A stretch of DNA of 64,000 nucleotides from Patescibacteria group bacterium (GCA_018819405.1 JAHJQF010000001.1:371277-435276), one strand, 5' to 3'. Shown: positions 4,661 through 42,730, numbered from the stretch's first letter. Notes: a model not told the origin generated them from the letters alone. Numbers and translations: made by a program.

Positions 4661-4699
4661 AAAAATTCCCGCCGCGCTGAGCGCGGCGGGAATTTTTTA
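4661..4699. terminator. Bidirectional rho-independent terminator between convergent genes
   Basis: Perfect 12-bp GC-rich stem ttcccgccgcgc / gcgcggcgggaa with a 3-nt loop, A-run before and T-run after. Confidence 0.8.
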
Positions 4700-8022: not shown

Positions 8023-9264
8023 ATGGAATATATTAATAATCAAAATGATAAAATTTCTGAAACCAGAGTCTCTGTAGATAATCTAAGGAAAGACGGGGAG
8101 CTTACTAAAGTAAGTCCGCAGATGACTTCTTTTAAGTTGTATACCAAAAAACCTACTTCTAAAACTGCAAAGAAAGAGGATAAAGAAATAACCCCGATTC
8201 ATAAAAAGGGATTTATTTTAGGTAGAGTGAGTCTGACTGACAAGATGCTTTTTATGGATAATATGTCTACTATGTTGAGGGCTGGTTTGGCTCTAGCTCC
8301 AGCTCTTAGGACGCTAAAACAAGAAATAAAAAATAAATATTTTAGGGATATTTTGGATTATCTTGAGCGCCATGTAGAAAATGGTCAGCCACTTTCTAAA
8401 GGTATGAAATATTATCCCAAGATTTTTCCGGAAATGATAATCGCCACAGTAGAAGTAGGAGAGAGTACTGGTATGTTGGCGGATTCTTTTGGCAATTTGG
8501 CTGATATTCTAAAAAGACAAAAGGAGCTACAAGGCAAGGTAATTAGTGCTGTCATGTATCCGTCCATTGTCATGTTGGCGCTTATTGCAGTATCAATATT
8601 TTTGGCTTTAGTTATTTTTCCTCAGCTAGTTGGTCTTTTTCAATCGGCCAATGTAGAATTGCCTTTTGTCTTGAGGGCAGTACAGGCGATAAATGGTTTT
8701 ATTAGAAATTATACTTGGCATACTTTGGGTGGCTTGGTTATTTTTGGAGTGGCTATGAGATTTATATTTAAATTTCCAAAACCAAAATTTTTCCTTCACA
8801 GCATGATGCTCAAGATACCTTTTATTGGTAAGATAATCAGAGAGTTGTCGCTCACTAGATGGGCTGGAAATTTACAAGCTTTATTGGGAGCAGGATTGGC
8901 TATTGTAAATTCTATGAAAATATCAGCCCAGACACTTGGTAATATTAGATTTAAAAATGCAGTGTTAGAGATGTCTGATGAATTGGAAAAAGGCACTTCT
9001 CTAGAAAAAGCCATGCTTAAAAGGCCTGATTTATTTCCATCCTTATCGACTCAATTGTGTCAGGTAGGCGAGACCACTGGTGAGCTGGAGGAAATCCTAG
9101 GCAAAATTTCCAAATTTTATGAAGATAGAGTCAACAACATTTTGAGTAATTTATCTACTATTTTAGAGCCAATTTTGTTGGTGGTAGTAGGTGTAGTGGT
9201 CGGATTTATTGCGGTATCAGTCATTGGTCCGATGTATGAACTCACTCTTAGCTTTGCCGAATAA
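8023..9264 (+). CDS. pilC: Type IV pilus platform protein PilC (GspF family)
   Basis: Two GspF repeats and polytopic membrane profile, immediately downstream of pilB. Confidence 0.88.
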   Translation: MEYINNQNDKISETRVSVDNLRKDGELTKVSPQMTSFKLYTKKPTSKTAKKEDKEITPIHKKGFILGRVSLTDKMLFMDNMSTMLRAGLALAPALRTLKQEIKNKYFRDILDYLERHVENGQPLSKGMKYYPKIFPEMIIATVEVGESTGMLADSFGNLADILKRQKELQGKVISAVMYPSIVMLALIAVSIFLALVIFPQLVGLFQSANVELPFVLRAVQAINGFIRNYTWHTLGGLVIFGVAMRFIFKFPKPKFFLHSMMLKIPFIGKIIRELSLTRWAGNLQALLGAGLAIVNSMKISAQTLGNIRFKNAVLEMSDELEKGTSLEKAMLKRPDLFPSLSTQLCQVGETTGELEEILGKISKFYEDRVNNILSNLSTILEPILLVVVGVVVGFIAVSVIGPMYELTLSFAE

Positions 9265-11656: not shown

Positions 11657-12201
11657 TTTTGAAAAATAACAAAATAAAAAAAGATCAAAAAGGTTTTACT
11701 TTTATAGAAACTTTACTTTATATTTTTATTTCCAGCATGCTTATTTTGATAATAAGCAGTATGGTAATGAGTATTTTCAATATCAAAAGGCAGTTTCAGG
11801 CATCATATTTAGTTCATAACAATGCCCGTTTTATTACCAATTTTTTGATGAATAGGATTCATAATGTAGACAGTATCCAAGATGCTAGTCCACTGCCTGA
11901 GGGATTTCATTTTTATGAATGGCCGGATATTCGTTTTAGTATAGATGCCGAGGGAAATGATTTGGTATACAGAGAGACGCATGATGTGGGAGCTGGTTTT
12001 CCTGATCAATCTACAGCCACGGCGATGGTTTTAAACTCAAATAAAGTAATAGTCAGCGATCTAACGCTGACGCCTATTTCCGATGCCTATGGGCAAGCAA
12101 ATCAGGGTATAAATATTACCTTTACTTTGACCACGGGCAATAGTAGTTATAGACATGGCTATTTGCAGAAAACTTTTAATACCTTTATAAGTATCCGTTG
12201 A
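11653..12201 (+). CDS. Minor pilin-like protein (prepilin N-terminus)
   Basis: N-terminus KGFTFIETLLYIFISSMLILII. Overlaps the previous gene by 4 nt (operon). Confidence 0.6.
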   Translation: MILKNNKIKKDQKGFTFIETLLYIFISSMLILIISSMVMSIFNIKRQFQASYLVHNNARFITNFLMNRIHNVDSIQDASPLPEGFHFYEWPDIRFSIDAEGNDLVYRETHDVGAGFPDQSTATAMVLNSNKVIVSDLTLTPISDAYGQANQGINITFTLTTGNSSYRHGYLQKTFNTFISIR

Positions 12202-13151
12202 TGAACAATAAAATAAAATCACAAAATGGGGCAGTGGCTTTGATAGCCACTCTGGTAGTAGCGACTGGTATGTTTTCGGTAGTTTTGTCAATTTTATTTA
12301 TTTCTATAAACACTAGGGAGAGCTTGATATCTTTTGTGGATTCTATGCAGGATTTTTATGCTGCCGAATCGGGAGTAGGAGAGGCAATGATGCAACTTAG
12401 AAAAGAGCATACTAATTTTGATTTTCGTAGTATAAATGTAGGGGGTATTGTAGCTTCTAGTGAGTTTTTTGATATGCCTGGAGAATGTATGCCGATTCCG
12501 GAGTGTCAATTTACACCAGGGTCAGGTTGGTGGGCTGAATATTTTAATTATTCTGTCACTCATCCTGATATGGAGGTCAATCCTTATCCCGGGCCAACTC
12601 CTAGTCCACTTGATCATGATTGGTATTGGGATATTTATAAAACACACGAGCAGGTTGATGCCAATATTGATTTTCTGACCAGTATGTGGTTTCCCTATGA
12701 TGGGACTATTTACGAAAACAAAGAGGGGTTTTTGCATGATTACCATTTTGGTATGCACTGGCGAGCAAAGGTGACAGCACCAGCTGATAGTGATTATAGA
12801 TACTATTTAGCATCAGACGACGATTCTTGGGTTTTATTGGATGATATAGTAATAGTAAATAATAGTGGCACTCACGCTGCTAATATAAAAACAGGCACTA
12901 TATTTTTATCAGCCGGCGATAGTATAGTAGACATATATTTTGCTGAACGCCACACCGTAGAATCAGGCTTTAGTTTTTATTTTGAGGATACCAATTTGGT
13001 TATTACTCCTTGGCCAGAAGGTTGTGGTGATGATTTGACTTGTAATTCTCATATAGAGTCGACTGCTTCTACTACCAAAGCCACCAGAAAAGTAAGATAT
13101 ACTTGTAACCAGGATATTTCCAACTGTAATTGGAGTGAACTAGTGCCATAG
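12198..13151 (+). CDS. PilX_N-like pilus protein carrying a PA14-like carbohydrate-binding domain
   Basis: N-terminus QNGAVALIATLVVATGMFSVVLSILF resembles the PilX N-domain. The C-terminal half matches the PA14 pattern (GWWAEYF...MHWRAKVTAPADSDYRYYLASDDDSWVLLDDIVIVNNSGTH...IFLSAGDSIVDIYFAE). Confidence 0.55.
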   Translation: MMNNKIKSQNGAVALIATLVVATGMFSVVLSILFISINTRESLISFVDSMQDFYAAESGVGEAMMQLRKEHTNFDFRSINVGGIVASSEFFDMPGECMPIPECQFTPGSGWWAEYFNYSVTHPDMEVNPYPGPTPSPLDHDWYWDIYKTHEQVDANIDFLTSMWFPYDGTIYENKEGFLHDYHFGMHWRAKVTAPADSDYRYYLASDDDSWVLLDDIVIVNNSGTHAANIKTGTIFLSAGDSIVDIYFAERHTVESGFSFYFEDTNLVITPWPEGCGDDLTCNSHIESTASTTKATRKVRYTCNQDISNCNWSELVP

Positions 13152-13191: not shown

Positions 13192-14130
13192 ATGGAAGTA
13201 TTTGATAAATATTTATTTTATAATATAATCCTGCTGATTTTAGTGGGTGTTTATTTATTAAAGAGTAATCAGGACAAAAAATATGGTCAGTCAAATTTTT
13301 TTGGTAAGACCAAAATTTTTCAGCCAGTCATAGAAAAATTTACAACCAATCTCACTCAGCTTGCTATAGAAAGCAAAATTGATCCGGTAGTGGGCAGGGA
13401 CCATGAGATAAAAAGACTGATTCAAATATTATCACGACGAAAAAAAAATAATGTTATTTTGTATGGCAAAGCCGGTATTGGTAAAACAGCCATTGTAGAA
13501 GGTTTGGCTATGGCCATTTCTCAAGCTAGGGTTCCGCAGTCTCTTTTGGGTAAGACAGTTCTTAAATTGGATATATCATCAGTTTTGGCGGGCACAAAAT
13601 ATAGAGGTGAGTTTGAAGACCGTTTCAAGGCTTTGATTGATGCCATTATAAGTTTGGAAAAACAGGTAATAGTTTTTATTGATGAGATTCATACTATAGT
13701 TCAAGCCGGTGGCGTGGAAGGAGCTATTGACGCTGACGATATTATAAAATCTCCTTTGGCACGTGGCGATCTGCAGATGGTAGGAACTACTACCACCAAA
13801 GAGTTTAAAGAATTTATTTTAAAAGACGCCGCTTTGACTAGACGTTTTGAAGCAATTTTAGTAGAAGAGCCTAGTGCTGAAAAAACTATTTCTATGCTCA
13901 AGGCACTGCGTAAAGATTATGAGGATTATCACAATGTTATTATCAGCGATAAAATAATAGAAAATATAGTTTCTTATTCGGCTAAAATAAAAAACAGAGT
14001 TTTTCCTGACAAGGCTATTGATATAATGGATGAAGTATCGGCCAAGGCAAGACTTGATCATGTTGACAATAACAAAACCATCACAATCACAAATAAAGAC
14101 CTTAGCGATGTTTTAAAAGATTTTAAATAA
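13192..14130 (+). CDS. Membrane-anchored AAA+ protein: N-terminal TM helix fused to a single ClpA/ClpB/ClpC-type first nucleotide-binding domain (D1), lacking the M-domain and D2
   Basis: Collinear with ClpB D1 (LAIESKIDPVVGRDHEIKRLIQILSRRKKNNVILYGKAGIGKTAIVEGLA...VIVFIDEIHTIV...ARGDLQMVGTTT...DAALTRRFE...DKAIDIMDE) and then terminates. Hydrophobic N-terminus. Confidence 0.7.
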   Translation: MEVFDKYLFYNIILLILVGVYLLKSNQDKKYGQSNFFGKTKIFQPVIEKFTTNLTQLAIESKIDPVVGRDHEIKRLIQILSRRKKNNVILYGKAGIGKTAIVEGLAMAISQARVPQSLLGKTVLKLDISSVLAGTKYRGEFEDRFKALIDAIISLEKQVIVFIDEIHTIVQAGGVEGAIDADDIIKSPLARGDLQMVGTTTTKEFKEFILKDAALTRRFEAILVEEPSAEKTISMLKALRKDYEDYHNVIISDKIIENIVSYSAKIKNRVFPDKAIDIMDEVSAKARLDHVDNNKTITITNKDLSDVLKDFK

Positions 14131-14463: not shown

Positions 14464-15252
14464 ATGTTTTTCTCTAAATTTAGATTTTTTGTAGGGTTTT
14501 TGGCTATTTTTAGTGGTATTTTGCTAATGGGAGCCAGCTGTCAAAATAATCAGGATCTTTATAATCAAAACAATAGTAATATAGTAGAAGAACAACTTGA
14601 TAACCAACCTTTAATTGGCGGTGATAAGGATGAGTATGGCTGTCTTATATCGGCAGGCTATTCTTGGTGCGAGACAAAAAATAAATGTTTGCGCACTTGG
14701 GAAGAAGAGTGCTCGGTAGTTGAAAATTCTAATCAAAATCAGACAATTCCAGTAGTTAAAACACCTGATAGTATTGTAGACTCTGTAGATTGGCAAATAT
14801 ATGAAAATAAAAAATTTGGTTATACAGTTTTGTATCCAGATAACACAGAAATTATTGCCAATAATTTAGACGAGTTTGTAGAGTTTGTGGGACCTTTGCA
14901 AGATGGAGAACGCTGGCCAAGGATTAGTATCTCACATTTTGACACCGTTGATTATCATCCGGAGGTGGGGGTCAATTTACAGGAATGGTTGGAAGATAGT
15001 ATTGGATCTTATGAGACTAGGGTTATTGGTATTGATGGAGGTATAGAAACACTACATGTTATTCAGCCACAGACAGTTGATTCTGATGGGGCAGATTATT
15101 ATTATTTTGTAAAAGACGGGCAGTTATTTAAGATTACTTTTTTGCACACTATCGGAAGTCAAGATTGGCCTATGTATATAAAATTTTTGTATAATTTCCA
15201 TTTTAATGTACCTACTACTAATGATATAGCTACCACTACTCCAGCACAATAA
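14464..15252 (+). CDS. Secreted protein / possible lipoprotein, hypothetical, cysteine-containing
   Basis: Signal peptide ending LLMGASC; no recognised domain. Confidence 0.5.
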   Translation: MFFSKFRFFVGFLAIFSGILLMGASCQNNQDLYNQNNSNIVEEQLDNQPLIGGDKDEYGCLISAGYSWCETKNKCLRTWEEECSVVENSNQNQTIPVVKTPDSIVDSVDWQIYENKKFGYTVLYPDNTEIIANNLDEFVEFVGPLQDGERWPRISISHFDTVDYHPEVGVNLQEWLEDSIGSYETRVIGIDGGIETLHVIQPQTVDSDGADYYYFVKDGQLFKITFLHTIGSQDWPMYIKFLYNFHFNVPTTNDIATTTPAQ

Positions 15253-15273
15253 TATTTTATAAATAAAAAATAG

Positions 15274-15311
15274 ACCTGCGGCGCGCTTTGGCGCGCCGCA
15301 GGTTTTGTTTT
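15274..15311. terminator. Bidirectional rho-independent terminator
   Basis: acctgcggcgcgc / gcgcgccgcaggt perfect 13-bp stem with tttg loop, flanked by A-run and T-run; separates convergent genes. Confidence 0.8.
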
Positions 15312-16374
15312 ACAGGCTATCGAGAATCTCGGTCAGCTTTTCAGCGATGACCGTAGCTACTGAGACATTTTCCACCAGACCGCCAGTCTGGTTTTCGTAA
15401 GAACGATGGATAGTGTCTCCAGCCAGGACTCGGGTGAAAGGACTGGTCCTTTTGCGACCAACCCTTCTTTTCCAGGGGGGCGAACACTTCATGTGGGTGG
15501 CGACCAGCTCTACCTGGAAAGCCTCGGCTCGCAACAGGTCGCGGCAGGTGTCAGCGGCAGTACCACCGGTATCGAGCTCATCTTCCCGCATGATGATGTA
15601 GGCGTCCTTGACGGTTTCCGAGTTGATGAGTTGGATTTCAACTCCATATTCCTGGCTTATCTTTTCGATGAAAGTCAGGTCTTGCGGTGTGGGTTCAACA
15701 TTGGTGACAATGTTGCCGGTTTCTTTGCGCTTTTTCAAGCTCAGGAGCACCGGTACGTCCAGTGACTTAGCAATGGCTACTGCCCTCAAGAGTGAACCTT
15801 TGTCCGGGGACAGAATCTTGAATTCTTTGTCGAGTTCCTTGGCCTTGGTCAGGCTGGACTTGAGAGCCGCTATGTACAACGGTGTAGGTTTGACGTGGTA
15901 GGTCTCCAGGCCGACTTGCTGGCAGTTGAGCATTGTTCTTTCGGAATGGATGTCGCAGACAAGCATACGGTCTGCTCCGTTGGCCTTGATGTTCTCCATG
16001 AACCAGAGGTTGAGGTCAAATTCTTCGGGGATCTCCGGATGATCCTGTCGTCGAAAAGCCATAAAGGGCTGAACAACGGTCAGACTCTTGGCGCCGTACT
16101 TTTTCTTGATCGCTCGGATGAGGATCAAAAGCTCCAAGACTAGGTGTGGTTTGTGGGTGCTCAGAAAGAGTACTGCGTGCTTGCCGGCGATGTCTTCCCA
16201 GCGGTCAAAACAGAAGTCAGGCTCACTGTCCGGCCACCAACCGAAATCGGTGTGGGACAGGCTGAGTGGTACTTATTTGATCCGGCGTATATTGACAGCG
16301 TCAATGATTTTTTGGGCCAGGTGGTTGGTGTCTCCGCGTCCGCAGAGCATCAGGATTTCTTCGGAGTGTGCCAT
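15310..16374 (-). pseudogene. prs: Ribose-phosphate pyrophosphokinase (PRPP synthetase, Prs family)-like gene interrupted by one in-frame TAA (minus-strand codon at 16275..16273), in a ~55% GC island
   Basis: Prs-collinear translation: MAHSEEILMLCGRGDTNHLAQKIIDAV...(TAA)...FLSTHKPHLVLELLILIRAIKKKYGAKSLTVVQPFMAFRRQD...DELDTGGTAADTC. Strong SD gggagg 5 nt before the ATG. GC content far above flanks. Confidence 0.55.
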
Positions 16375-16505
16375 TTTTGCCTCCCTGTTCATGTAAAGGA
16401 CTAGTGAAGTCCGTGTGTTGGCTTCATTACTTGCGCCTTTATATAAAACTAAATCAGACCTTTTGTCAATTTTTTATTTTTTCAAATAAATGATATAATT
16501 TTATT

Positions 16506-16940
16506 ATGAGACTTTGGAGTATACACCCTAGCTATTTGGATACCAAGGGTCTTTTGGCTCTTTGGCGCGAAAGCCTTTTAGCCAAAAAAGTTTTAAAAGG
16601 TCAAACTAAAGGGTATACAAAACATCCACAATTAGAACGCTTTAAACAAAGTGATGACCCTTTAAATCTCATCAATCATTATCTCAATTTTATTTGGCAG
16701 GAGGCGAATATTCGTGGTTACAATTTTGATCAGTCAAAAATAGAGAATTTTATCCCGACAAAAAAATTACCGGTTACCAGAGGGCAGATTATTTATGAGT
16801 TAGATCATCTAACTCATAAACTAAAAATTAGATCACCTCATTTTATCCGAGTTTTACCTCATCCAAATAAGGCTCAGACACATCCAATATTTTATGTTGT
16901 AGAGGGAGATATTGAAGCCTGGGAAAAATTATCTTTTTAG
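16506..16940 (+). CDS. Pyrimidine dimer DNA glycosylase-like protein (Pyr_excise / T4 endonuclease V-like family), tentative
   Basis: N-terminus MRLWSIHPSYLDTKGLLALWRESLLAKKVLKGQTKGYTKHPQLERF matches the conserved start of this family, from memory. Extended -10 tgatataat upstream. Confidence 0.5.
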   Translation: MRLWSIHPSYLDTKGLLALWRESLLAKKVLKGQTKGYTKHPQLERFKQSDDPLNLINHYLNFIWQEANIRGYNFDQSKIENFIPTKKLPVTRGQIIYELDHLTHKLKIRSPHFIRVLPHPNKAQTHPIFYVVEGDIEAWEKLSF

Positions 16941-16980
16941 TATATAATACAAAAATTAATAATTAATAAATAGTATATAT

Positions 16981-17391
16981 ATGAAAACATATATTTTAGC
17001 GCCAATTTTGTTGGCTACAGTGCTTTTGACAGGTGGCTGTTTGAAAAAAAATCCTTTGGTCACAAATGATCAAACTTTTGTAAATCAAAACCAAGAGGAA
17101 AACATGGAAAATATAGAAGAAGACGGGCTGATGGCCACTCAATATGACATGGCAGAGATCGCCCAACATAATAATGCTGACGATTGTTGGCTCCTTATTA
17201 GTGGCAAGGTTTATGATGTGACCAGCTTTATCGCTGGTGGCAATCATGGCGGTGGTGATGCCATACTGGAAGGTTGTGGTATTGATGCTACTGAGCTTTA
17301 TGAAACTAGACCCATGGGATCTGGTACACCTCACTCTGATAAGGCTCGTGGATTTTTGGAGGGTTTTTATATAGGAGATTTTAGAGAATAA
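16981..17391 (+). CDS. Cytochrome b5-like heme/steroid-binding domain lipoprotein
   Basis: Lipobox LLTGGC. Cyt-b5 core DDCWLLISGKVYDVTSFIAGGNHGGG. Confidence 0.6.
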   Translation: MKTYILAPILLATVLLTGGCLKKNPLVTNDQTFVNQNQEENMENIEEDGLMATQYDMAEIAQHNNADDCWLLISGKVYDVTSFIAGGNHGGGDAILEGCGIDATELYETRPMGSGTPHSDKARGFLEGFYIGDFRE

Positions 17392-17397
17392 CAAAAA

Positions 17398-17428
17398 CAG
17401 CCTCATATTTCGAGGCTGTTTTTTATTT
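17398..17428 (+). terminator. Rho-independent terminator
   Basis: cagcctc / gaggctg stem followed by ttttttatttg. Confidence 0.7.
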
Positions 17429-18052
17429 GTTTAATTGTTCTATTACTTCTTGGTCAGTAATCTGTCGGAAGTCAGCATAAAAATTACCAATAGCCATAAA
17501 AAGATGAGGTAAGTGTACATAAAATAATTCTTCGGATAAAGTTTGAAATTTTTCTAAGGATTCTTTGGGTAATACTGGAACAGCCAATATTATATGTTTG
17601 GCCTTTTTATTTTTAACAGATAATATAGCGGCTTGCATAGTAGAGCCGGTAGCTATGCCGTCATCAATTATTATAGCGGTTTTATATTTTAAATCTAAGG
17701 GAGTTCGGTGACCGCGGTATAGCTTTAGTCTTCTCTGGGCTTCTTTTTTTTCTTTGGTGATTTCCTCTTCAAGGTATTTCTTGTTTATACCCTCTTGAAT
17801 GATTATATCCTGGTCAAATACCGAGTATCCATCTTCGGAGATAGCTCCTATAGCAAATTCTGGGTTTTGAGGAGCGCTGATTTTTCTTGGTATTACAATA
17901 TCAAGCGGCAAGTTGAGGGTTTTTGCTACTTGGCCGGCTACTATGATACCGCCTCGAGGCAAGCCGATAATGATAGTATCTTTTTTATTTTTAAATTTTG
18001 CCAATTTTTCAGCCAATTTTTGGCCGGCGTCTTGGCGGTCTCGGAAAAACAT
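17423..18052 (-). CDS. Phosphoribosyltransferase-domain protein (PRTase type I fold)
   Basis: PRPP-binding loop AIIIDDGIATGSTM; N-terminal FxDRxDAGxxLA motif typical of stand-alone predicted PRTases. Confidence 0.7.
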   Translation of the reverse strand: MFFRDRQDAGQKLAEKLAKFKNKKDTIIIGLPRGGIIVAGQVAKTLNLPLDIVIPRKISAPQNPEFAIGAISEDGYSVFDQDIIIQEGINKKYLEEEITKEKKEAQRRLKLYRGHRTPLDLKYKTAIIIDDGIATGSTMQAAILSVKNKKAKHIILAVPVLPKESLEKFQTLSEELFYVHLPHLFMAIGNFYADFRQITDQEVIEQLNK

Positions 18053-18108
18053 ATATTTGTGTTATATTTTTATAATACACTTATGAGCCTTATTTGTCCA
18101 AAATGAAA

Positions 18109-18140
18109 ACCGCGGATTTCTTTAGTAAGAAATCCGCGGT
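18109..18140 (-). terminator. Palindromic terminator hairpin for the minus-strand membrane-protein gene
   Basis: accgcggatttctt / aagaaatccgcggt 13-14-bp perfect stem. Confidence 0.6.
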
Positions 18141-18143
18141 GGC

Positions 18144-18587
18144 TCAAATCAAATCGTACAGCCGGATGTCAAAGATGACTTTGCTGGCAAAATTGACTAG
18201 GGCAATGCCCACGCCGATAATCCAGCAGGTCAGCAGGAACTTGAATTGGAATTTTCTCAGACGTGGGTATTCTCTTTTTGTTCCTTTGGCTATCAGAAAC
18301 AAAAAGAGGGAGAAGAAGCCAAATAAACCAATGCCAGCCAGGCTGATATGAGTGATAAACAGCAGGCTGTGCCATGGCGCTTGGTCTGTCGAGTTCATTC
18401 GTGGTAGAGATCCTGAGGAAGCGGATACAGCCATGACGATGTCCAGGCAAATGCCTATTGTCAGCCAGAGCATGAAATGCCCTTTATTTTGGTAAAATCG
18501 GACACTGGCTATCAGGTAAGGCAGAAAGGCGATGACTTGGATGCCTATGACCCACAAATGGGCTAAATACCAGGGCGAATTTTCCAT
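18144..18587 (-). CDS. Hypothetical polytopic membrane protein (GC content ~47%, above local background)
   Basis: 4-5 predicted TM helices; no family recognised. Confidence 0.45.
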   Translation of the reverse strand: MENSPWYLAHLWVIGIQVIAFLPYLIASVRFYQNKGHFMLWLTIGICLDIVMAVSASSGSLPRMNSTDQAPWHSLLFITHISLAGIGLFGFFSLFLFLIAKGTKREYPRLRKFQFKFLLTCWIIGVGIALVNFASKVIFDIRLYDLI

Positions 18588-18661
18588 GATTTCCCTCCTT
18601 TTGACGCTTGTGTGATTGTACTTTACTCAATAAAATTATTACATATTTTATCTGGTGTCAA

Positions 18662-19465
18662 CTAAAGTCTTTTGAGGTAATTTTTTGCTGCTACTTTTGT
18701 TTCAAAATGCAGAGCTTTTTTTATATGGGTACTTTCAGCACCTTCAGATTTTAATCGGTGAGCCAAAGTGTTTCTTAGTATTTGGGGGTTGATAATTACT
18801 GGCGGATCAATACCTATGGCATATTTAGAAATCAGCCTTTCAATTGAGCGGACACTTAAATGCTCATTTTTACTTTTATTTGATCTATCAAAATTTATAA
18901 ATAAATATTGATTGTTATCTAGCCTTTGGTTTATGTATTTATCAAGATGAAACCAGGTTATAGGTTTTATAAGAATATGTTTTTTGGGATTGATAATAAT
19001 TTCTTTTTTTATTTGATCTATTTGATCAAGGCGCAACTGGCATAATTGTCCGACTTTTAATCCGCTGTAATATAAAATCTCTAATATTGCTTTATCACGC
19101 AGGGCTATCAATCCTTTTTTTGTCAGAGGTTTATCTAAAAATACCTGAAGTTGTTCATTATTTAATATTTTGATTGGCGCATCTTGATCAGAGAGAAGAT
19201 CAAATTGAAATCTTTTATTTAAAAATTTAAGATAGTTATTTACAATTTTTAGGCGTAGATTGACAGTATTTACTCTTTGATATTTTCTAGTTAAATATAT
19301 AAAATATAATTTAAGGTTTTTTTCGGTGATTTTTTCTTCCCCAAGCCAAACTAGGAATTTTTCCAAATTCCAAAGATAGCTTTTTATAGTACTAGGGGCT
19401 AAGGCGAGAGATTTTAAGTATTTTTTGTATTCATTTACCCCGTTAGAAATTTTAGTAGTCGACAT
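18662..19465 (-). CDS. Tyrosine site-specific recombinase (XerC/XerD / phage integrase family)
   Basis: N-terminal SAM-like core-binding region and C-terminal catalytic segment with R...HRL...Y (LRNTLAHRL...KNYLKRL). Confidence 0.75.
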   Translation of the reverse strand: MSTTKISNGVNEYKKYLKSLALAPSTIKSYLWNLEKFLVWLGEEKITEKNLKLYFIYLTRKYQRVNTVNLRLKIVNNYLKFLNKRFQFDLLSDQDAPIKILNNEQLQVFLDKPLTKKGLIALRDKAILEILYYSGLKVGQLCQLRLDQIDQIKKEIIINPKKHILIKPITWFHLDKYINQRLDNNQYLFINFDRSNKSKNEHLSVRSIERLISKYAIGIDPPVIINPQILRNTLAHRLKSEGAESTHIKKALHFETKVAAKNYLKRL

Positions 19466-19565
19466 ATATTTGTTTTATTATTTGCACCCCCTATATCATA
19501 AATTTTTAAACTCATTAGAAGCTAGATTTCTAAATCGGTTTAATTGGGTGGGTATTTATATTTTA

Positions 19566-19602
19566 CCCCGCACCATTTTTTCCGTCAAAAAATGGTGCGG
19601 GG
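19566..19602. repeat. Perfect 16-bp inverted repeat (ccccgcaccatttttt / aaaaaatggtgcgggg) with 5-nt spacer, upstream of the recombinase
   Basis: Seen directly. Only a weak T-run follows, so it is not a canonical terminator; possible regulatory or recombination site. Confidence 0.6.
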
Positions 19603-19770
19603 TTTAGCATATTACGACACGTATATAATTAGCTTGTCTTATTATAGCATCTTGACTTTGTCCTTGAAAAATGTTAGTCTAAGCCCAGATAATTAATTAA
19701 TTTCCTAGTTCTTGGTTTGGCCTGACAACTAACTAGAGGCCTTACTAGGATGTAGGAGAAAGGACAATTT

Positions 19771-20118
19771 ATGTTAGATAAAAAAAAGAAGCAAAAGCTG
19801 ATTGAGAAGTATAAAACTCATAAAAGCGATACTGGTTCGGCTGAGGTGCAGATTGCAATTCTTACTGAAGAGATAAAAGAATTGACCAAACATCTTCGTG
19901 AACACAAAAAAGATTTTTCATCACGTCGCGGATTATTGGCTAAAGTATCTTTGCGTCACAAATTACTTCGTTATTTGGAGCGCGAAGATGAAAAGAGATT
20001 TAGCAAAATCATCAAAGCTCTGAGTTTGAAAATGGCCAAAAGAGAGAGATATGATATTTTGGAAGAAGTTCCAGAATTGCCAGAAGAAGAAACAGAAGAA
20101 GAGTCAGAAAAAGAATAA
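19771..20118 (+). CDS. rpsO: 30S ribosomal protein S15 with acidic C-terminal extension
   Basis: S15 signature HLREHKKDFSSRRGLLAKVSLRHKLLRYL. Structured leader upstream with nested stems (tcctagt...actagga, ggcct...aggcc) and SD aggagaaagga. Confidence 0.9.
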   Translation: MLDKKKKQKLIEKYKTHKSDTGSAEVQIAILTEEIKELTKHLREHKKDFSSRRGLLAKVSLRHKLLRYLEREDEKRFSKIIKALSLKMAKRERYDILEEVPELPEEETEEESEKE

Positions 20119-39763: not shown

Positions 39764-39840
39764 TCGTCCTGTAGCTCAGCTGGTTAGAGCACCACTCTTA
39801 TAAAGTGGGGGTCCTGGGTTCAAGTCCCAGCAGGACGACC
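39764..39840 (+). tRNA. tRNA-Ile with anticodon UAU (reads AUA)
   Basis: Manual fold: acceptor cgtcctg/caggacg with one G-U, D-arm gctc/gagc, anticodon stem ccact/agtgg with loop cttataa (anticodon TAT), T-arm ctggg-ttcaagt-cccag, discriminator A, encoded CCA. Confidence 0.8.
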
Positions 39841-39898
39841 AGATTGACATTTTATCCACTATTTGCTATATTTCTATCGTTAAATTTATTATCAAGAT

Positions 39899-39988
39899 AT
39901 GGGAACAAAACTAAAGAATAAAAGATTATCTGTAAAAAGACGTCGCAGAAAGAAACTCAAGAGACGCAATAGATTTAAAAATAAATAA
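39899..39988 (+). CDS. 29-aa highly basic peptide (MGTKLKNKRLSVKRRRRKKLKRRNRFKNK), possibly a bS22-like small ribosomal protein
   Basis: Unlisted short ORF; composition and MG(T/S)...KRRR..KKL.RR.R pattern resemble small ribosomal protein bS22. No SD. Confidence 0.25.
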   Translation: MGTKLKNKRLSVKRRRRKKLKRRNRFKNK

Positions 39989-40167
39989 TTTTTACCTGTC
40001 TACGGTAGGTAGGTATTTATTCAATAAAGAACCGTTTTTGCCTAGCGCGATTATTGTGGCATTAGCGGTTTTTTGTTAGGTTTAAAAGATAAAAAATCGC
40101 GCCCCCTTTTTCCAACATAGGATTAAGGGGGCGTTAGTATAGGCTGACCGCCTATTGTGTTGTAGAC

Positions 40168-40461
40168 TCAGGCCACCTTGGCCAGAGTAGGGTAGGAGGA
40201 GATCCTAGCCAAACCAGGGTCTTCAAACTGGACAGCAAAGTAGGAATCGGACATCCCGACCAGCCGGCCTTGTCTGATACCAGAAAGCCAGTAGATCCAG
40301 CGTATATCACCACGCTTGACGACCACGAAAGTGCGGCGTCCTTTGTGGATGATGGCCTTGCGTCCGGTTAGGGAATTGGTCAAGGTCAGGTCTCGGTGTA
40401 GGATAGCCGTTACGCGAGGCAGTTCCGGTAGGAGTTCTTGGAGTTTTTCCAGAGTAGACAT
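40168..40461 (-). CDS. Small basic protein, candidate RelE/ParE-like toxin partner
   Basis: 97 aa from internal ATG 40461 (MSTLEKLQ...). Segment RRTFVVVKRGDIRWIYWLSGIRQ resembles RelE/ParE-fold toxins (weak). Confidence 0.35.
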   Translation of the reverse strand: MSTLEKLQELLPELPRVTAILHRDLTLTNSLTGRKAIIHKGRRTFVVVKRGDIRWIYWLSGIRQGRLVGMSDSYFAVQFEDPGLARISSYPTLAKVA

Positions 40462-40465
40462 GAGT

Positions 40466-40708
40466 TTAGCTCCCTTCAGGCAGGCGAAGCAGCCGATTGA
40501 AGATGCTGGGGTCTTCGACAAAGCTTCGAATTTCACCAATCTGGTCAAGGTCGTAGTTGAAGTAAAGGGTGTAGGAGCCAGCTGGCAAAATGATGATTTC
40601 TTGGACTTGTCCGGTTATAGGGTCGATGACTTCAACACTGGTGTTTGTGTCCAGGACAATGGTCTTGGGATCAGCGAGGATTGACTGAAATTTTTCGGCT
40701 TGAGTCAT
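40466..40708 (-). CDS. Small acidic protein, candidate antitoxin of a two-gene toxin-antitoxin-like module (GC-rich island)
   Basis: 80 aa, pI acidic. Stop separated by 4 nt from the downstream basic ORF; SD aagggag for the downstream gene lies in its 3' end. Confidence 0.35.
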   Translation of the reverse strand: MTQAEKFQSILADPKTIVLDTNTSVEVIDPITGQVQEIIILPAGSYTLYFNYDLDQIGEIRSFVEDPSIFNRLLRLPEGS

Positions 40709-40978
40709 GACATTTTCCTCCTAGTGAAAAGAACAGATTTGAGCATAAAAAAATATTCCTTTTCAGGAATATTTAATTCACTCTATATAAATATTTTTTT
40801 CTTTGACAAATTCAGAACTGAGAAAAAATAAAAGCCCTTTATCGGGGGTCATTTTCTGATGATGGGCATATCTTTTTTTCATCTTTATAATTATAGCAAA
40901 AATAAATATTTGGTCAACTAGTCTTAAAATAAAGGGAAAATTGAAGCCCCCACCAAGATGTCTGTCTATAGTGGGGGC

Positions 40979-41176
40979 TCAAGCTTGGCCGGGGCTTAGT
41001 GATCCGTTTTGGATCAATTGGAGGTGCTGTCTCAGTGCTTGTTCAACTTCTTGGGCCGTTTCTTTCCGGCAGTAGAGGCGAGCTACATCAATCGCCGCAT
41101 GTAGGGTTTTTTCATCGGGTAGGGAGTAAAAGTTTTGGATAGCCATGGCCATGAGTTTGGCGCCGTCTTCTTGCAT
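40979..41176 (-). CDS. 65-aa hypothetical protein with canonical SD and sigma70-like promoter
   Basis: SD ggaggtga 4 nt upstream of ATG. Promoter TTGACA (41266..41261) -17 nt- TATAAA (41243..41238) on minus strand. Confidence 0.4.
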   Translation of the reverse strand: MQEDGAKLMAMAIQNFYSLPDEKTLHAAIDVARLYCRKETAQEVEQALRQHLQLIQNGSLSPGQA

Positions 41177-41306
41177 GGTTTCACCTCCTTGAGGTTTCGA
41201 GTTAAGGACAGGGCGGAGAAAAATAGAGTAATATTTATTTATAATATTAATATTGGTATTTGTCAAGAAAAGGAAGGCCGCCCGACTAGAAGCCGGGCGG
41301 CTATGT

Positions 41307-41657
41307 TTAGGAAGCATTGACAGCCTCTTCGGCATCATTGTCTTCCGATACGTCCTCGGTAGGTGTGAGTTGTGGCAGCAACTCCAGGACCTTGAGAGGC
41401 ACGATGGAAACCCTGAGACCAGGGTAGTCTTTTTGGGTGGAGGCCCAAATCCAGCTGGTTATAGATTGGCCGACCATGCGACCTTGGTCAAGCTCTTTCT
41501 TGATGACCAAGAGGTCATGAGGAAAGATAGTAGGATCTCCTGGATTGGCTATCCTGACCAACTTGTAAGTACCAGCGGCGTAGACTATTGGTTTCCCCTG
41601 GATAAGAGGGCTTGGGAACAGGGTATCCTCCTCTGTGGAAAAGTCTATGAGGTTCAT
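41307..41657 (-). CDS. 116-aa hypothetical protein (strand choice uncertain in GC-rich DNA)
   Basis: Co-oriented with all other island genes and protein-like composition. The overlapping plus-strand ORF 41253..41687 is the alternative. Confidence 0.3.
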   Translation of the reverse strand: MNLIDFSTEEDTLFPSPLIQGKPIVYAAGTYKLVRIANPGDPTIFPHDLLVIKKELDQGRMVGQSITSWIWASTQKDYPGLRVSIVPLKVLELLPQLTPTEDVSEDNDAEEAVNAS

Positions 41658-41965
41658 CGGGTGATGAGCAACGAGGGTGAAGATTAAGTGCTTTGCGACG
41701 TTGCCTCCGTGCTAGAGAAGTGAGTGAGGTGCGAGTGGCGGGGGGATATATTTTTATTATACACAAAAAATAGGATAAGGGAAATTTTTATAATTTTTAT
41801 AAAAAGAAAGCCGCCCTGGAACGTTTGGCGTTCCAGGGCGGAGGGAAAAACAAGGTCAGCTAGCTTGTACGTATCTAGGACTTGTTTTCGAATTGGCTGG
41901 GGTTGAAATCAACAACCACTATCAGTCGTTGGGGGAGATGGCAGATTTAGTATAATAGTTCCTTT

Positions 41966-42592
41966 CTAGACAGGGTAATTACCTCTGAGTCGGAGCCACT
42001 CTTCACGACCTTTGGGGCGTATAGCTTCGGAGCCGGCCAGACACAAGGGACAGTCCTGAGGTTGCCAGGTGTCAATCTGGGGAGCGATCAAGCTGATGAT
42101 CTTACGACCATCCAGATCAGATAATCCCGATCGGTTGACCAGCGCTAGAATGGTATGGCTCACAATCCCGCCTGCTTCGCTTATACCGGCGATGCTCTGG
42201 CGGGTGGTTTTGCCAGTAGTCATGACATCTTCAACCATTAGTACCCTGGTGCCAGGCTTCAGTGGAAAGCGTTTGAGCAACATCTGGTTGTCAACCTTTT
42301 CGGTGAAGCCGGCTTCCTTCTCCATACTCAGAGCCAGTTGGTAGGCCAGAGTGACGCCGCCCATGGCTGAACCAATAACCATATCATATGGACAATTGTG
42401 TAGCCAGTTGGCCTGATTGGCCAGGTGCCAGCAAGCCTTTTCCAGTAGAGCAGGGTTGCGGATAATTAGGCTACAGTTGACAAAGCCGTTGGAGTGCAGT
42501 CCACTGGTCAAAAGAGCGTGGGGACGCTGAGGATTGTTGTCGTGGAGCCACAGGGCACCGGTTTGTTTGAAGACTTCCAGCCACATGAACAT
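41966..42592 (-). CDS. Orotate phosphoribosyltransferase-like PRTase (PyrE family), in GC-rich island
   Basis: PRPP loop VLMVEDVMTTGKTTRQSIAGISEAGG and DMVIGSAMGGVTLAYQLA segment are collinear with PyrE. Confidence 0.6.
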   Translation of the reverse strand: MFMWLEVFKQTGALWLHDNNPQRPHALLTSGLHSNGFVNCSLIIRNPALLEKACWHLANQANWLHNCPYDMVIGSAMGGVTLAYQLALSMEKEAGFTEKVDNQMLLKRFPLKPGTRVLMVEDVMTTGKTTRQSIAGISEAGGIVSHTILALVNRSGLSDLDGRKIISLIAPQIDTWQPQDCPLCLAGSEAIRPKGREEWLRLRGNYPV

Positions 42593-42679
42593 GATTTAGC
42601 CTTTCTGTTGGGAGTGAACTATTTTTGACAAGCTAGCGCCTTGTCTGTTTTTCGGACTAATTTTTCTATATTTAATGAT

Positions 42680-42730
42680 TTTTGTCAATTGATAAAGCTT
42701 TTTTAATTTTGAGAAATAAGGTAAAATATA
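42680..42730 (+). repeat. 51-nt direct repeat copy 1 (promoter-like: ttgtca ... taaaatata)
   Basis: Identical to 42832..42882 except one base (g/c). Confidence 0.8.

Follow-up and report, generated by a model that had tools for sequence, protein, structure and literature searches.

Tyrosine recombinases of the Xer type are two-domain proteins for which vertical inheritance at a fixed chromosomal locus is expected, and the single-recombinase systems among them (archaeal XerA, XerS with difSL, and XerH with difH) are the described systems that most resemble the one considered here. A classification of simple tyrosine recombinases also names a "Cand" subgroup from candidate phyla (Smyshlyaev et al., bioRxiv 10.1101/542381). 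In integrons, and in the pdif modules of Acinetobacter plasmids, a tyrosine recombinase adjoins single-gene units; in genomic plasticity regions, or "hotspots", the core flanks are fixed and the enclosed genes differ even among close relatives. A locus with something of each is found in a 64,000-nucleotide stretch (hereafter, the window) of a Patescibacteria group bacterium (GCA_018819405.1, JAHJQF010000001.1:371277-435276), where a tyrosine recombinase homologue lies divergently beside rpsO and pnp and next to a run of non-housekeeping genes at 16.4-19.6 kb. A sequence-only reading of this patch had taken it for a decayed integrative element or a Xer-associated mobile module. The comparison with relatives described below makes it quite probable that the region is a variable gap between two operons and not an integrative element, that the recombinase is an inherited Xer orthologue, and that the palindromes nearby are terminators plus one private insertion.

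The host belongs to a Komeilibacteria-like lineage of Patescibacteria (candidate phyla radiation, CPR), as placed by a PNPase-anchored search of GTDB species genomes. Synteny was followed by tblastn of the window proteins against 80 pnp-anchored loci (numbered L001 onward), and the neighbouring open reading frames (ORFs) of 34 relatives' loci were clustered, with representatives annotated with Pfam. One locus, L081, is an independent Logan assembly of the same genome, identical over 20.8 kb; the recombinase itself is on record on a contig of 1,035,872 bp. The closest relative is L082, in which the recombinase is 77% and PNPase 88% identical to those of the window, and which is collinear with it at about 77% nucleotide identity.

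The recombinase is a core gene, inherited vertically as the positional orthologue of the canonical Patescibacteria Xer, and not cargo. The arrangement of recombinase (minus strand), rpsO and pnp (both plus strand) occurs in every one of the 33 Komeilibacteria-type loci long enough to show it, with recombinase identities of 41-65% by tblastn. A recombinase holds the same position in 18 loci of more distant Patescibacteria (Falkowbacteria, Uhrbacteria, Paceibacter and others), which brings the arrangement to 51 Patescibacteria loci in total. The distant proteins are 26-29% identical to that of the window and 62-71% identical to one another; they are 300-330 residues long and fully canonical in their motifs (GLRVSEL, HxLRH, LLGH and IYTH). 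No syntenic recombinase was found in the non-Patescibacteria loci of the pnp-anchored sample, and no second tyrosine recombinase in the window or in any 20-kb locus. Every relative has the recombinase, and the genes adjoining it vary independently of it. The proteins most like that of the window form a family, here called K/Q, of 67 members with 42-100% identity and mostly 258-272 residues, set apart from Xer-like proteins of about 319 residues by a gap in E-values from 1e-37 to 1e-18. Profile alignment with hhalign nevertheless joins the window recombinase to canonical Patescibacteria Xer at 100% probability over 256 columns.

A second line of evidence is a promoter motif that has stayed with the gene. 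The window, in all its 64 kb, has a single GTGTCGT, and the motif precedes the syntenic recombinase in K/Q and canonical-Xer Patescibacteria alike (L001-L078), across the low protein identity just given. It directly precedes a -10 hexamer (TAAAAT, TATAAT or TACAAT), and the start codon usually follows some 6-20 nucleotides on, so that the recombinase mRNA would be leaderless or nearly so; the promoter of L082, GTGTCGTAATATGC-TAAAAT-ATAGAT-ATG, is essentially leaderless. Where insertions part the recombinase from rpsO, GTGTCGT remains with the recombinase, and from its placement it is possibly a promoter or operator element specific to this gene. Shared position and shared motif together identify the window recombinase as the positional orthologue of chromosomal Xer. 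The sequence-only reading had made the recombinase part of a mobile element, and had said beforehand that finding it to be the chromosomal Xer would count against that view; by synteny, this is what was found.

GTGTCGT was also considered as a dif half-site and rejected, as it has no palindromic partner, abuts the -10 of a leaderless promoter and is accompanied by no GC-skew switch. The idea had come from the corresponding TTATGTTAAA of the relatives, which resembles the XerD arm. The window, at about 36% GC, has a positive GC skew throughout all 64 kb, and the locus is therefore not a replication terminus. A Xer system would have a dif site of 28-31 bp at the replication terminus, or beside the gene where a single Xer is used; within the window no dif-like site was found near the recombinase, and the skew does not switch.

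Like the single-recombinase Xer proteins and the "Cand" subgroup, the window recombinase has the simple two-domain fold, is chromosomal and is present as a single copy in the window. An AlphaFold model (predicted local distance difference test score, pLDDT, 90.7) has the fold intact and ends with the tyrosine-bearing helix, with no helix after the tyrosine. Its best structural matches are to XerA (5hxy, Foldseek 5.5e-13, followed by 4a8e), and XerA 4a8e is also the best match in the Protein Data Bank by sequence (3e-14). Unlike the single-recombinase proteins, it falls far below the NCBIfam cutoffs for Xer families (score/cutoff: XerA 98.5/220, XerD 70.5/330, XerC 63.8/335, XerS 54.5/267), and its active site is altered. 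The canonical set R-(E)-K-H-R-H/W-Y is incomplete: the window protein has K137 at Arg-I and Q228 at His-II, together with R231, H253 and Y263. These substitutions are fixed in the family. In 62 of 62 full-length K/Q members Arg-I is lysine (GLKVGQ), His-II is glutamine (PQILRN) and Arg-II is retained; the tyrosine is kept in 60 of the 62 and His-III in 53, and the position equivalent to the glutamate is variable. In place of the canonical β2-β3 motif GKGxKxR, with its general-acid lysine, there is a loop four residues shorter that has no conserved lysine. Four residues follow the tyrosine, against 17-33 in canonical syntenic orthologues, and the post-tyrosine αN helix that couples subunits is missing.

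Mutagenesis of Cre gives some measure of what such changes could mean: K201 is essential, E176Q is inactive in vitro, H289 tolerates substitution, and R173K is inactive in vitro (PMC2943603). By its residues, catalysis by the K/Q recombinase is probably impaired or non-canonical. No account of Xer in CPR bacteria was found in the searchable literature, and the K/Q variant was not found described there.

The variable DNA begins where the recombinase ends. The islet extends over 13.2-18.6 kb, from a pilus-like cluster, whose last gene encodes a PA14-domain protein (12198-13151), to the recombinase stop codon. Between these limits L009 has no genes at all (a 9-bp gap), L005 and L006 have one each, L001 has three and L004 has seven. 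Six clustered genes of L004 run in the order 262-aa hypothetical, prs-like (ribose-phosphate pyrophosphokinase-like), dNK-like, PEBP, Cyt-b5 and 147-aa membrane gene, and are followed by the recombinase; the window is collinear with L004 minus dNK and PEBP, and has in addition Pyr_excise, a phosphoribosyltransferase (PRTase) and an AAA+ fragment. L082 is without the prs-like, Pyr_excise, Cyt-b5 and membrane genes. Aligned with it, the window contains three extra segments: 15208-17415 (a terminator and the prs-like, Pyr_excise and Cyt-b5 genes), 18080-18677 (a terminator and the membrane gene), and a third upstream of the recombinase, described below. The idea of an accessory block is thus borne out in that gene content differs among relatives, from 0 to 7 genes, and fails for the recombinase, which is not among the variable genes.

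The collinear order of the shared genes argues for inheritance with differential loss. Some exchange is likely as well. By their flanks L004 and L084 are equidistant from the window (PA14 protein 68% identical in both, recombinase 58% in both, Cyt-b5 54% in both), and yet the prs-like gene in the same slot is 43% identical to the window's in L004 and 76% in L084. Homologues of the prs-like gene with 60-77% identity occur in three different genomic contexts, and Pyr_excise was found at no relative's locus. These three observations together suggest that some gene exchange or replacement among related genomes is likely.

As a type of locus, the islet resembles genomic plasticity regions in its fixed core flanks, in its 0 to 7 genes from a shared pool, and in differences even among close relatives. 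Unlike them, it is very small (at most 5.5 kb) and has no integrase, tRNA or mobility genes of its own, and its gene order is conserved, which suggests that loss dominates.

The palindromes of the window are not chance products: ten perfect hairpins of at least 11 bp are present, and none appeared in ten Markov simulations. Those at 4661, 15274, 17393 and 51543 are placed at the ends of genes or between such ends and resemble terminators, and long perfect stems of this unusual kind are found throughout the genome. The hairpins of the bidirectional pair in Table 1 both lie between convergent genes and score as intrinsic terminators, and L082 has a bidirectional terminator at the position of the second. 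The one beyond the membrane gene, which the sequence-only reading had described as a 13-bp palindrome, does exist, with arms of 14 bp (18109-18122 and 18127-18140; 7 of the 14 pairs are G-C) and a 4-nucleotide loop. It opens 4 nucleotides past the stop codon of the membrane gene; on the minus strand the stem is followed by TTTTCATTTT, with the T-tail TTTCATTTTG, and by these marks it is identified as the predicted intrinsic terminator of that gene. All three have what is typical of Rho-independent terminators: a GC-rich perfect stem, a loop of 4-7 nucleotides, a T-run, and a place at a gene end.

Other than terminators, the patch has one palindrome between genes, and it is a private, hairpin-containing insertion. 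The second inverted repeat of the earlier description (16 bp, 19566-19602) is likewise real and slightly longer, with 17-bp arms and a 5-nucleotide loop. It is not a typical terminator, since it stands between the divergent promoters of the recombinase and rpsO, has an A/T tract within the stem, and lacks a T-tail. It was not found in the 33 Komeilibacteria-type recombinase-rpsO spacers (32 of K/Q type and that of L082); its arm is unmatched in all other fetched loci except L081, which is the same genome; blastn of the 181-bp insertion region gave no other copy; and a metagenome scan with a 16-mer from the hairpin gave, among the matches listed, only random single-arm matches. No relative has it, and so it is no conserved site of the att or dif kind. 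Two further identities were set aside: a repeated element, since the arm occurs in no other locus and blastn gave no second copy, and a known RNA, since Rfam gives no match at gathering scores and only sub-threshold noise in 19400-19850. The two palindromes that had been proposed as dif or att relics have no sequence in common; one is a terminator and the other private.

Alignment with relatives shows how the insertion sits. The hairpin is a clean insertion that parts the GTGTCGT motif from its -10, and its loop supplies a TTGACG 17 nucleotides from TAAAAT. Within the third extra segment the former ATG reads ACC, and the recombinase is lengthened by nine residues through a new ATG at 19465. 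A further perfect palindrome, of 13 bp, was noticed at 16792-16820 (TTTATGAGTTAGAT-C-ATCTAACTCATAAA) within the coding sequence of Pyr_excise, where its translation is IYELDHLTHK; with none of at least 11 bp in ten simulations, a chance origin is unlikely.

On the far side of the recombinase, its spacer to rpsO measures 134-191 bp in about 20 close relatives and up to 2 kb in others. This is a second variable spot, with 0.5-7 kb of unrelated ORFs (L017, L021, L023-L026, L035, L003 and L007); the canonical loci with such insertions are L039, L044-L047 and L050. Insertions at this second spot indicate that the DNA on either side of the xer-like gene tolerates insertion.

Several of these observations weigh against a reading of the locus as an inherited gene beside a passively varying gap. 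In 12 K/Q loci the recombinase and rpsO are separated by insertions of 0.5-3.6 kb, and some canonical loci have 0.7-7 kb inserted there; variable DNA thus lies on both sides of the recombinase in many relatives, which leaves room for a local process driven by the recombinase. Tyr, Arg-II and mostly His-III are conserved in the K/Q clade, and Cre R173K still recombines in vivo, if weakly (PMC2943603), so that by analogy some residual or unusual catalysis by the K/Q protein is possible. Nor does simple vertical inheritance with loss explain why the prs-like and membrane genes have GC contents at third codon positions (GC3) of 57-65% in genomes of 33-44% GC, in several species and three contexts.

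The first two of these points belong to an alternative in which the K/Q recombinase has kept its activity and generates the local variability by taking up or removing single-gene cassettes to the left and right of its own gene, in the manner of an integron integrase or a hotspot recombinase. Content does vary directly downstream of the recombinase, and in many genomes upstream too; the genes are mostly single-gene units, several with a hairpin terminator of their own, as in integrons and pdif modules; Tyr and Arg-II are kept; and the GC3-rich prs-like gene turns up in three contexts. Unlike the recombination sites of those systems, the hairpins are heterogeneous, T-tailed Rho-independent terminators unrelated in sequence, not an attC-like family, and no paired XerC/D half-sites accompany them. 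The integron integrase model IntI scores 22 bits against a cutoff of 265, and the protein, shorter than canonical Xer, could not accommodate the insert specific to IntI. Changes or losses affect Arg-I, the β2-β3 lysine, His-II and the C-terminal helix, insertion variability is comparable in canonical-Xer lineages, and a collinear order across species fits loss, not cassette shuffling. On this balance an active cassette-handling recombinase appears improbable.

An equally improbable account is one of pure differential loss, in which an ancestor had the whole gene set and all present differences are deletions, with no horizontal entry. CPR genomes are reductive, the shared genes are collinear across species, and the prs-like gene of the window has been caught decaying, with a nonsense codon. 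Against this, Pyr_excise is at no relative's locus, and its best non-self homologues (only 55-62% identical) come from a scatter of phyla, archaea included; genomes equally related to that of the window have, in one and the same slot, prs-like genes of two deeply divergent lineages; and a GC3 of 57-65% would be hard to maintain over long vertical residence in a genome of 36% GC.

The compositional point extends to the relatives. Prs-like genes have a GC3 of 61-65% in L083, L084, L085, L004 and L007, amid DNA of 36-44% GC, and orthologues of the membrane gene in L001, L004 and L013 have a GC3 of 51-53% in loci of 33-38% GC. GC3-rich prs-like or membrane genes were thus seen to recur in L004, L007, L031, L083, L084, L085, L001 and L013, and the richness is not specific to the window genome. 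A recent import of the membrane gene, as judged by GC, was considered and rejected, as the three orthologues are equally GC3-rich. Among the possible causes are a pool of genes in circulation, selection acting on the mRNA and a donor rich in GC.

The integrative element or Xer-associated (pdif/IMEX-like) module first proposed, with palindromes as att or dif relics, is the least probable account and can very nearly be dismissed: the block is partly absent from L082, its genes are in mixed orientation with non-housekeeping functions, two have deviant GC3, and a perfect 17-bp inverted repeat stands upstream of the recombinase, but the recombinase is fixed in 33 K/Q and 18 canonical-Xer loci, neither palindrome shares sequence with the other, the other genes are met in relatives in unchanged order, and direct tests for mobility were negative. 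No significant direct or inverted repeats flank the block. A search for the dif core ATAA-N6-TTATGTWAA with one mismatch allowed found none in the region, and the sole match in the window, at 9261, is at chance level. No tRNA lies beside the block, the nearest being at 39.7 kb, some 20 kb away. Among the PHROGs the recombinase matches only generic integrase families (phrog_1 and phrog_216), the prs-like and AAA+ proteins match general enzyme families, and the PRTase one family of unknown function; no phage structural or replication functions and no conjugation functions were among the matches. No DNA matches to phages or plasmids were found, and no relatives of the recombinase in IMG/VR. What would be looked for in the integrase of an element, namely co-variation with cargo, flanking att sites or tRNA and mobility genes, is wanting throughout.

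Preferred instead is the variable inter-operon gap. In this account, two conserved blocks, the type-IV-pilus-like cluster ending at 13151 and the divergent recombinase/rpsO-pnp pair, bound a gap whose genes are independent units, most of them parted from the next by a hairpin terminator. The genes are drawn from a shared pool (the 262-aa gene, prs-like, dNK-like, PEBP, Cyt-b5, DUF1003 and the 147-aa membrane protein) that related species have kept in one relative order and lost to differing degrees, with exchange likely by homologous recombination through the conserved flanks and with a few singletons added, Pyr_excise presumably among them. The hairpin between the recombinase and rpsO is then an insertion into the ancestral leaderless promoter of the recombinase.

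Table 1. Features of the variable interval, the recombinase and its spacer to rpsO (positions in the window)
Feature	Position	Strand	Basis or remark
AAA+ ATPase fragment, ClpA/B-like (AAA + AAA_lid_9)	13192-14130	+	Pfam, PHROG 4871, synteny
262-aa hypothetical protein, cluster c2	14464-15252	+	Neighbourhood clustering
Predicted bidirectional intrinsic terminator, GC-rich	15274-15303		Between 262-aa gene and prs-like gene
prs-like (ribose-phosphate pyrophosphokinase-like) gene	15310-16374	-	Pfam, homologues
Pyr_excise, pyrimidine-dimer DNA glycosylase	16506-16940	+	Pfam 7.8e-22
Cyt-b5-domain protein, putatively secreted or lipid-anchored, cluster c3	16981-17391	+	Pfam 2.2e-17
Predicted bidirectional intrinsic terminator	17393-17423		Between Cyt-b5 and PRTase genes
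Type-I phosphoribosyltransferase (Pribosyltran), 209 aa	17423-18052	-	Pfam 3.7e-18
Predicted intrinsic terminator of membrane-protein gene	18109-18140	-	Terminator scoring
147-aa hydrophobic, putative membrane protein	18144-18587	-	ORF and composition
Tyrosine recombinase homologue, Xer-derived K/Q type	18662-19465	-	Pfam Phage_integrase and SAM-like N-terminal domain (SAM_1), 1.5e-13
Window-specific 167-bp extra segment relative to L082 (hairpin, new 5' sequence)	19436-19602		Alignment with L082
Perfect hairpin, private insertion	19565-19603		Arms 19565-19581 and 19587-19603
Conserved motif, putative xer promoter	19604-19624	-	GTGTCGT at 19614-19620
rpsO promoter and conserved structured 5' leader	19664-19770	+	Right-hand core boundary

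The individual genes of the interval (Table 1) are largely as first described: of the five genes originally named in the patch, four are confirmed by Pfam, and the fifth, the membrane protein, is present and has neither a Pfam nor an NCBIfam match. The AAA+ fragment, the leftmost gene of the interval, is common only to the window and L082. Its product is a stand-alone protein of 312 residues whose similarity to ClpA/B-type ATPases is confined to their first nucleotide-binding domain and the lid (PHROG 4871, 8e-91, profile positions 166-438 of 764), and it could be either a truncated Clp-like gene product or a minimal AAA+ protein. The 262-aa gene that follows gives no match in Pfam and belongs to the islet pool as a semi-conserved gene, found in 11 loci.

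The GC-rich prs island noted earlier is real, and is the prs-like gene itself (52% GC, GC3 64%). At 16273-16275, its codon 34, it reads TAA in frame, against the CAA or CAG (Gln) of homologues, and the independent Logan assembly has this stop too. The NCBI annotation of this locus has only a 275-aa C-terminal ORF (hypothetical protein KKH39_02015). From its coding sequence, the gene is a probable pseudogene, or else one with an N-terminally truncated product.

Pyr_excise belongs to the family of T4 endonuclease V, with a score of 77.9 bits for PF03013, whose cutoff is 23, and the identical protein is named pyrimidine dimer DNA glycosylase/endonuclease V by NCBI. Its WRE presumably corresponds to the YRE of T4 endonuclease V, the catalytic residues having been compared by eye only. 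Its composition is native-like (34% GC). The link to phages suggested for this gene does not hold: Pyr_excise has no PHROG match and is a cellular family, with 2,561 homologues in bacteria and archaea, and a phage origin was rejected, the single uncultured phage record being 41% identical.

The Cyt-b5 protein has a hydrophobic N-terminal segment that ends in Cys, with an imperfect lipobox; its cluster, of 11 members including the window's, occupies the same relative position in 10 relatives' loci. The PRTase is common to L082 (77% identical) and L018 (57%). For the membrane gene a GC content of about 47% had been noted, and the measured values agree (46% GC, and a GC3 of 57% against a window median of 32%); its orthologues adjoin the recombinase in L004 (72%), L013 (67%) and L001 (28%).

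To the right of the recombinase the rpsO promoter reads TTGAAA-18-GATAAT in the window, and relatives have a -35 of the TTGACT type. The rpsO leader that follows (19695-19770) was observed to be conserved and structured in an alignment of 30 loci. Pairing holds in 84% of cells against 75% in shuffled alignments, and the covariation score is 0.33 against 0.18, with 0 of 500 shuffles reaching the observed value in either case; shifting the partner columns by one cuts pairing to 54-56%, and compensatory changes occur in 4 of the 5 pairs of the inner helix. Rfam gave no match to the leader, its S15 leader families included. On the alignment it is a candidate S15 autoregulatory leader specific to the lineage.

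The only other GC3 outliers in the window form a 3-kb island at 39842-42700, directly downstream of tRNA-Ile(TAT) at 39765-39841. The ORFs of this island (39.8-42.6 kb) have a GC3 of 57-61% and comprise an OPRT-like Pribosyltran gene (41966-42592, minus strand) and hypothetical ORFs, and a perfect 13-bp hairpin lies at 41811-41841. As a candidate for an integrated foreign segment it is better than the patch at 16.4-19.6 kb.

The patch itself is ordinary, apart from a clade-wide Xer orthologue with an altered active site. For the annotation of CPR genomes this is a warning that a tyrosine recombinase, odd genes and palindromes in company can amount to a core gene, a loss-prone gap and ordinary terminators. 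A small compositional puzzle is the persistent GC3 richness of the prs-like and membrane genes in genomes that are themselves at about 36% GC; it may point to a gene pool in circulation among these organisms. As to the recombinase, it is a tentative suggestion, and one we hold to be somewhat doubtful, that in Komeilibacteria and their allies the chromosomal Xer orthologue has been converted to a protein unable to carry out standard tyrosine-recombinase chemistry, and is nonetheless kept by purifying selection at its ancestral locus and promoter. If the K/Q protein is the sole Xer of these bacteria, they would either resolve dimers by some non-canonical mechanism or lack Xer/dif resolution altogether, and the protein may then be a site-specific DNA-binding factor, or an unusual recombinase tied to the gene flux beside it. 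Were it both inactive and the sole Xer, it would bear on how ultra-small symbiotic bacteria handle chromosome dimers, and would provide a clean natural example of a recombinase becoming a pseudo-enzyme.

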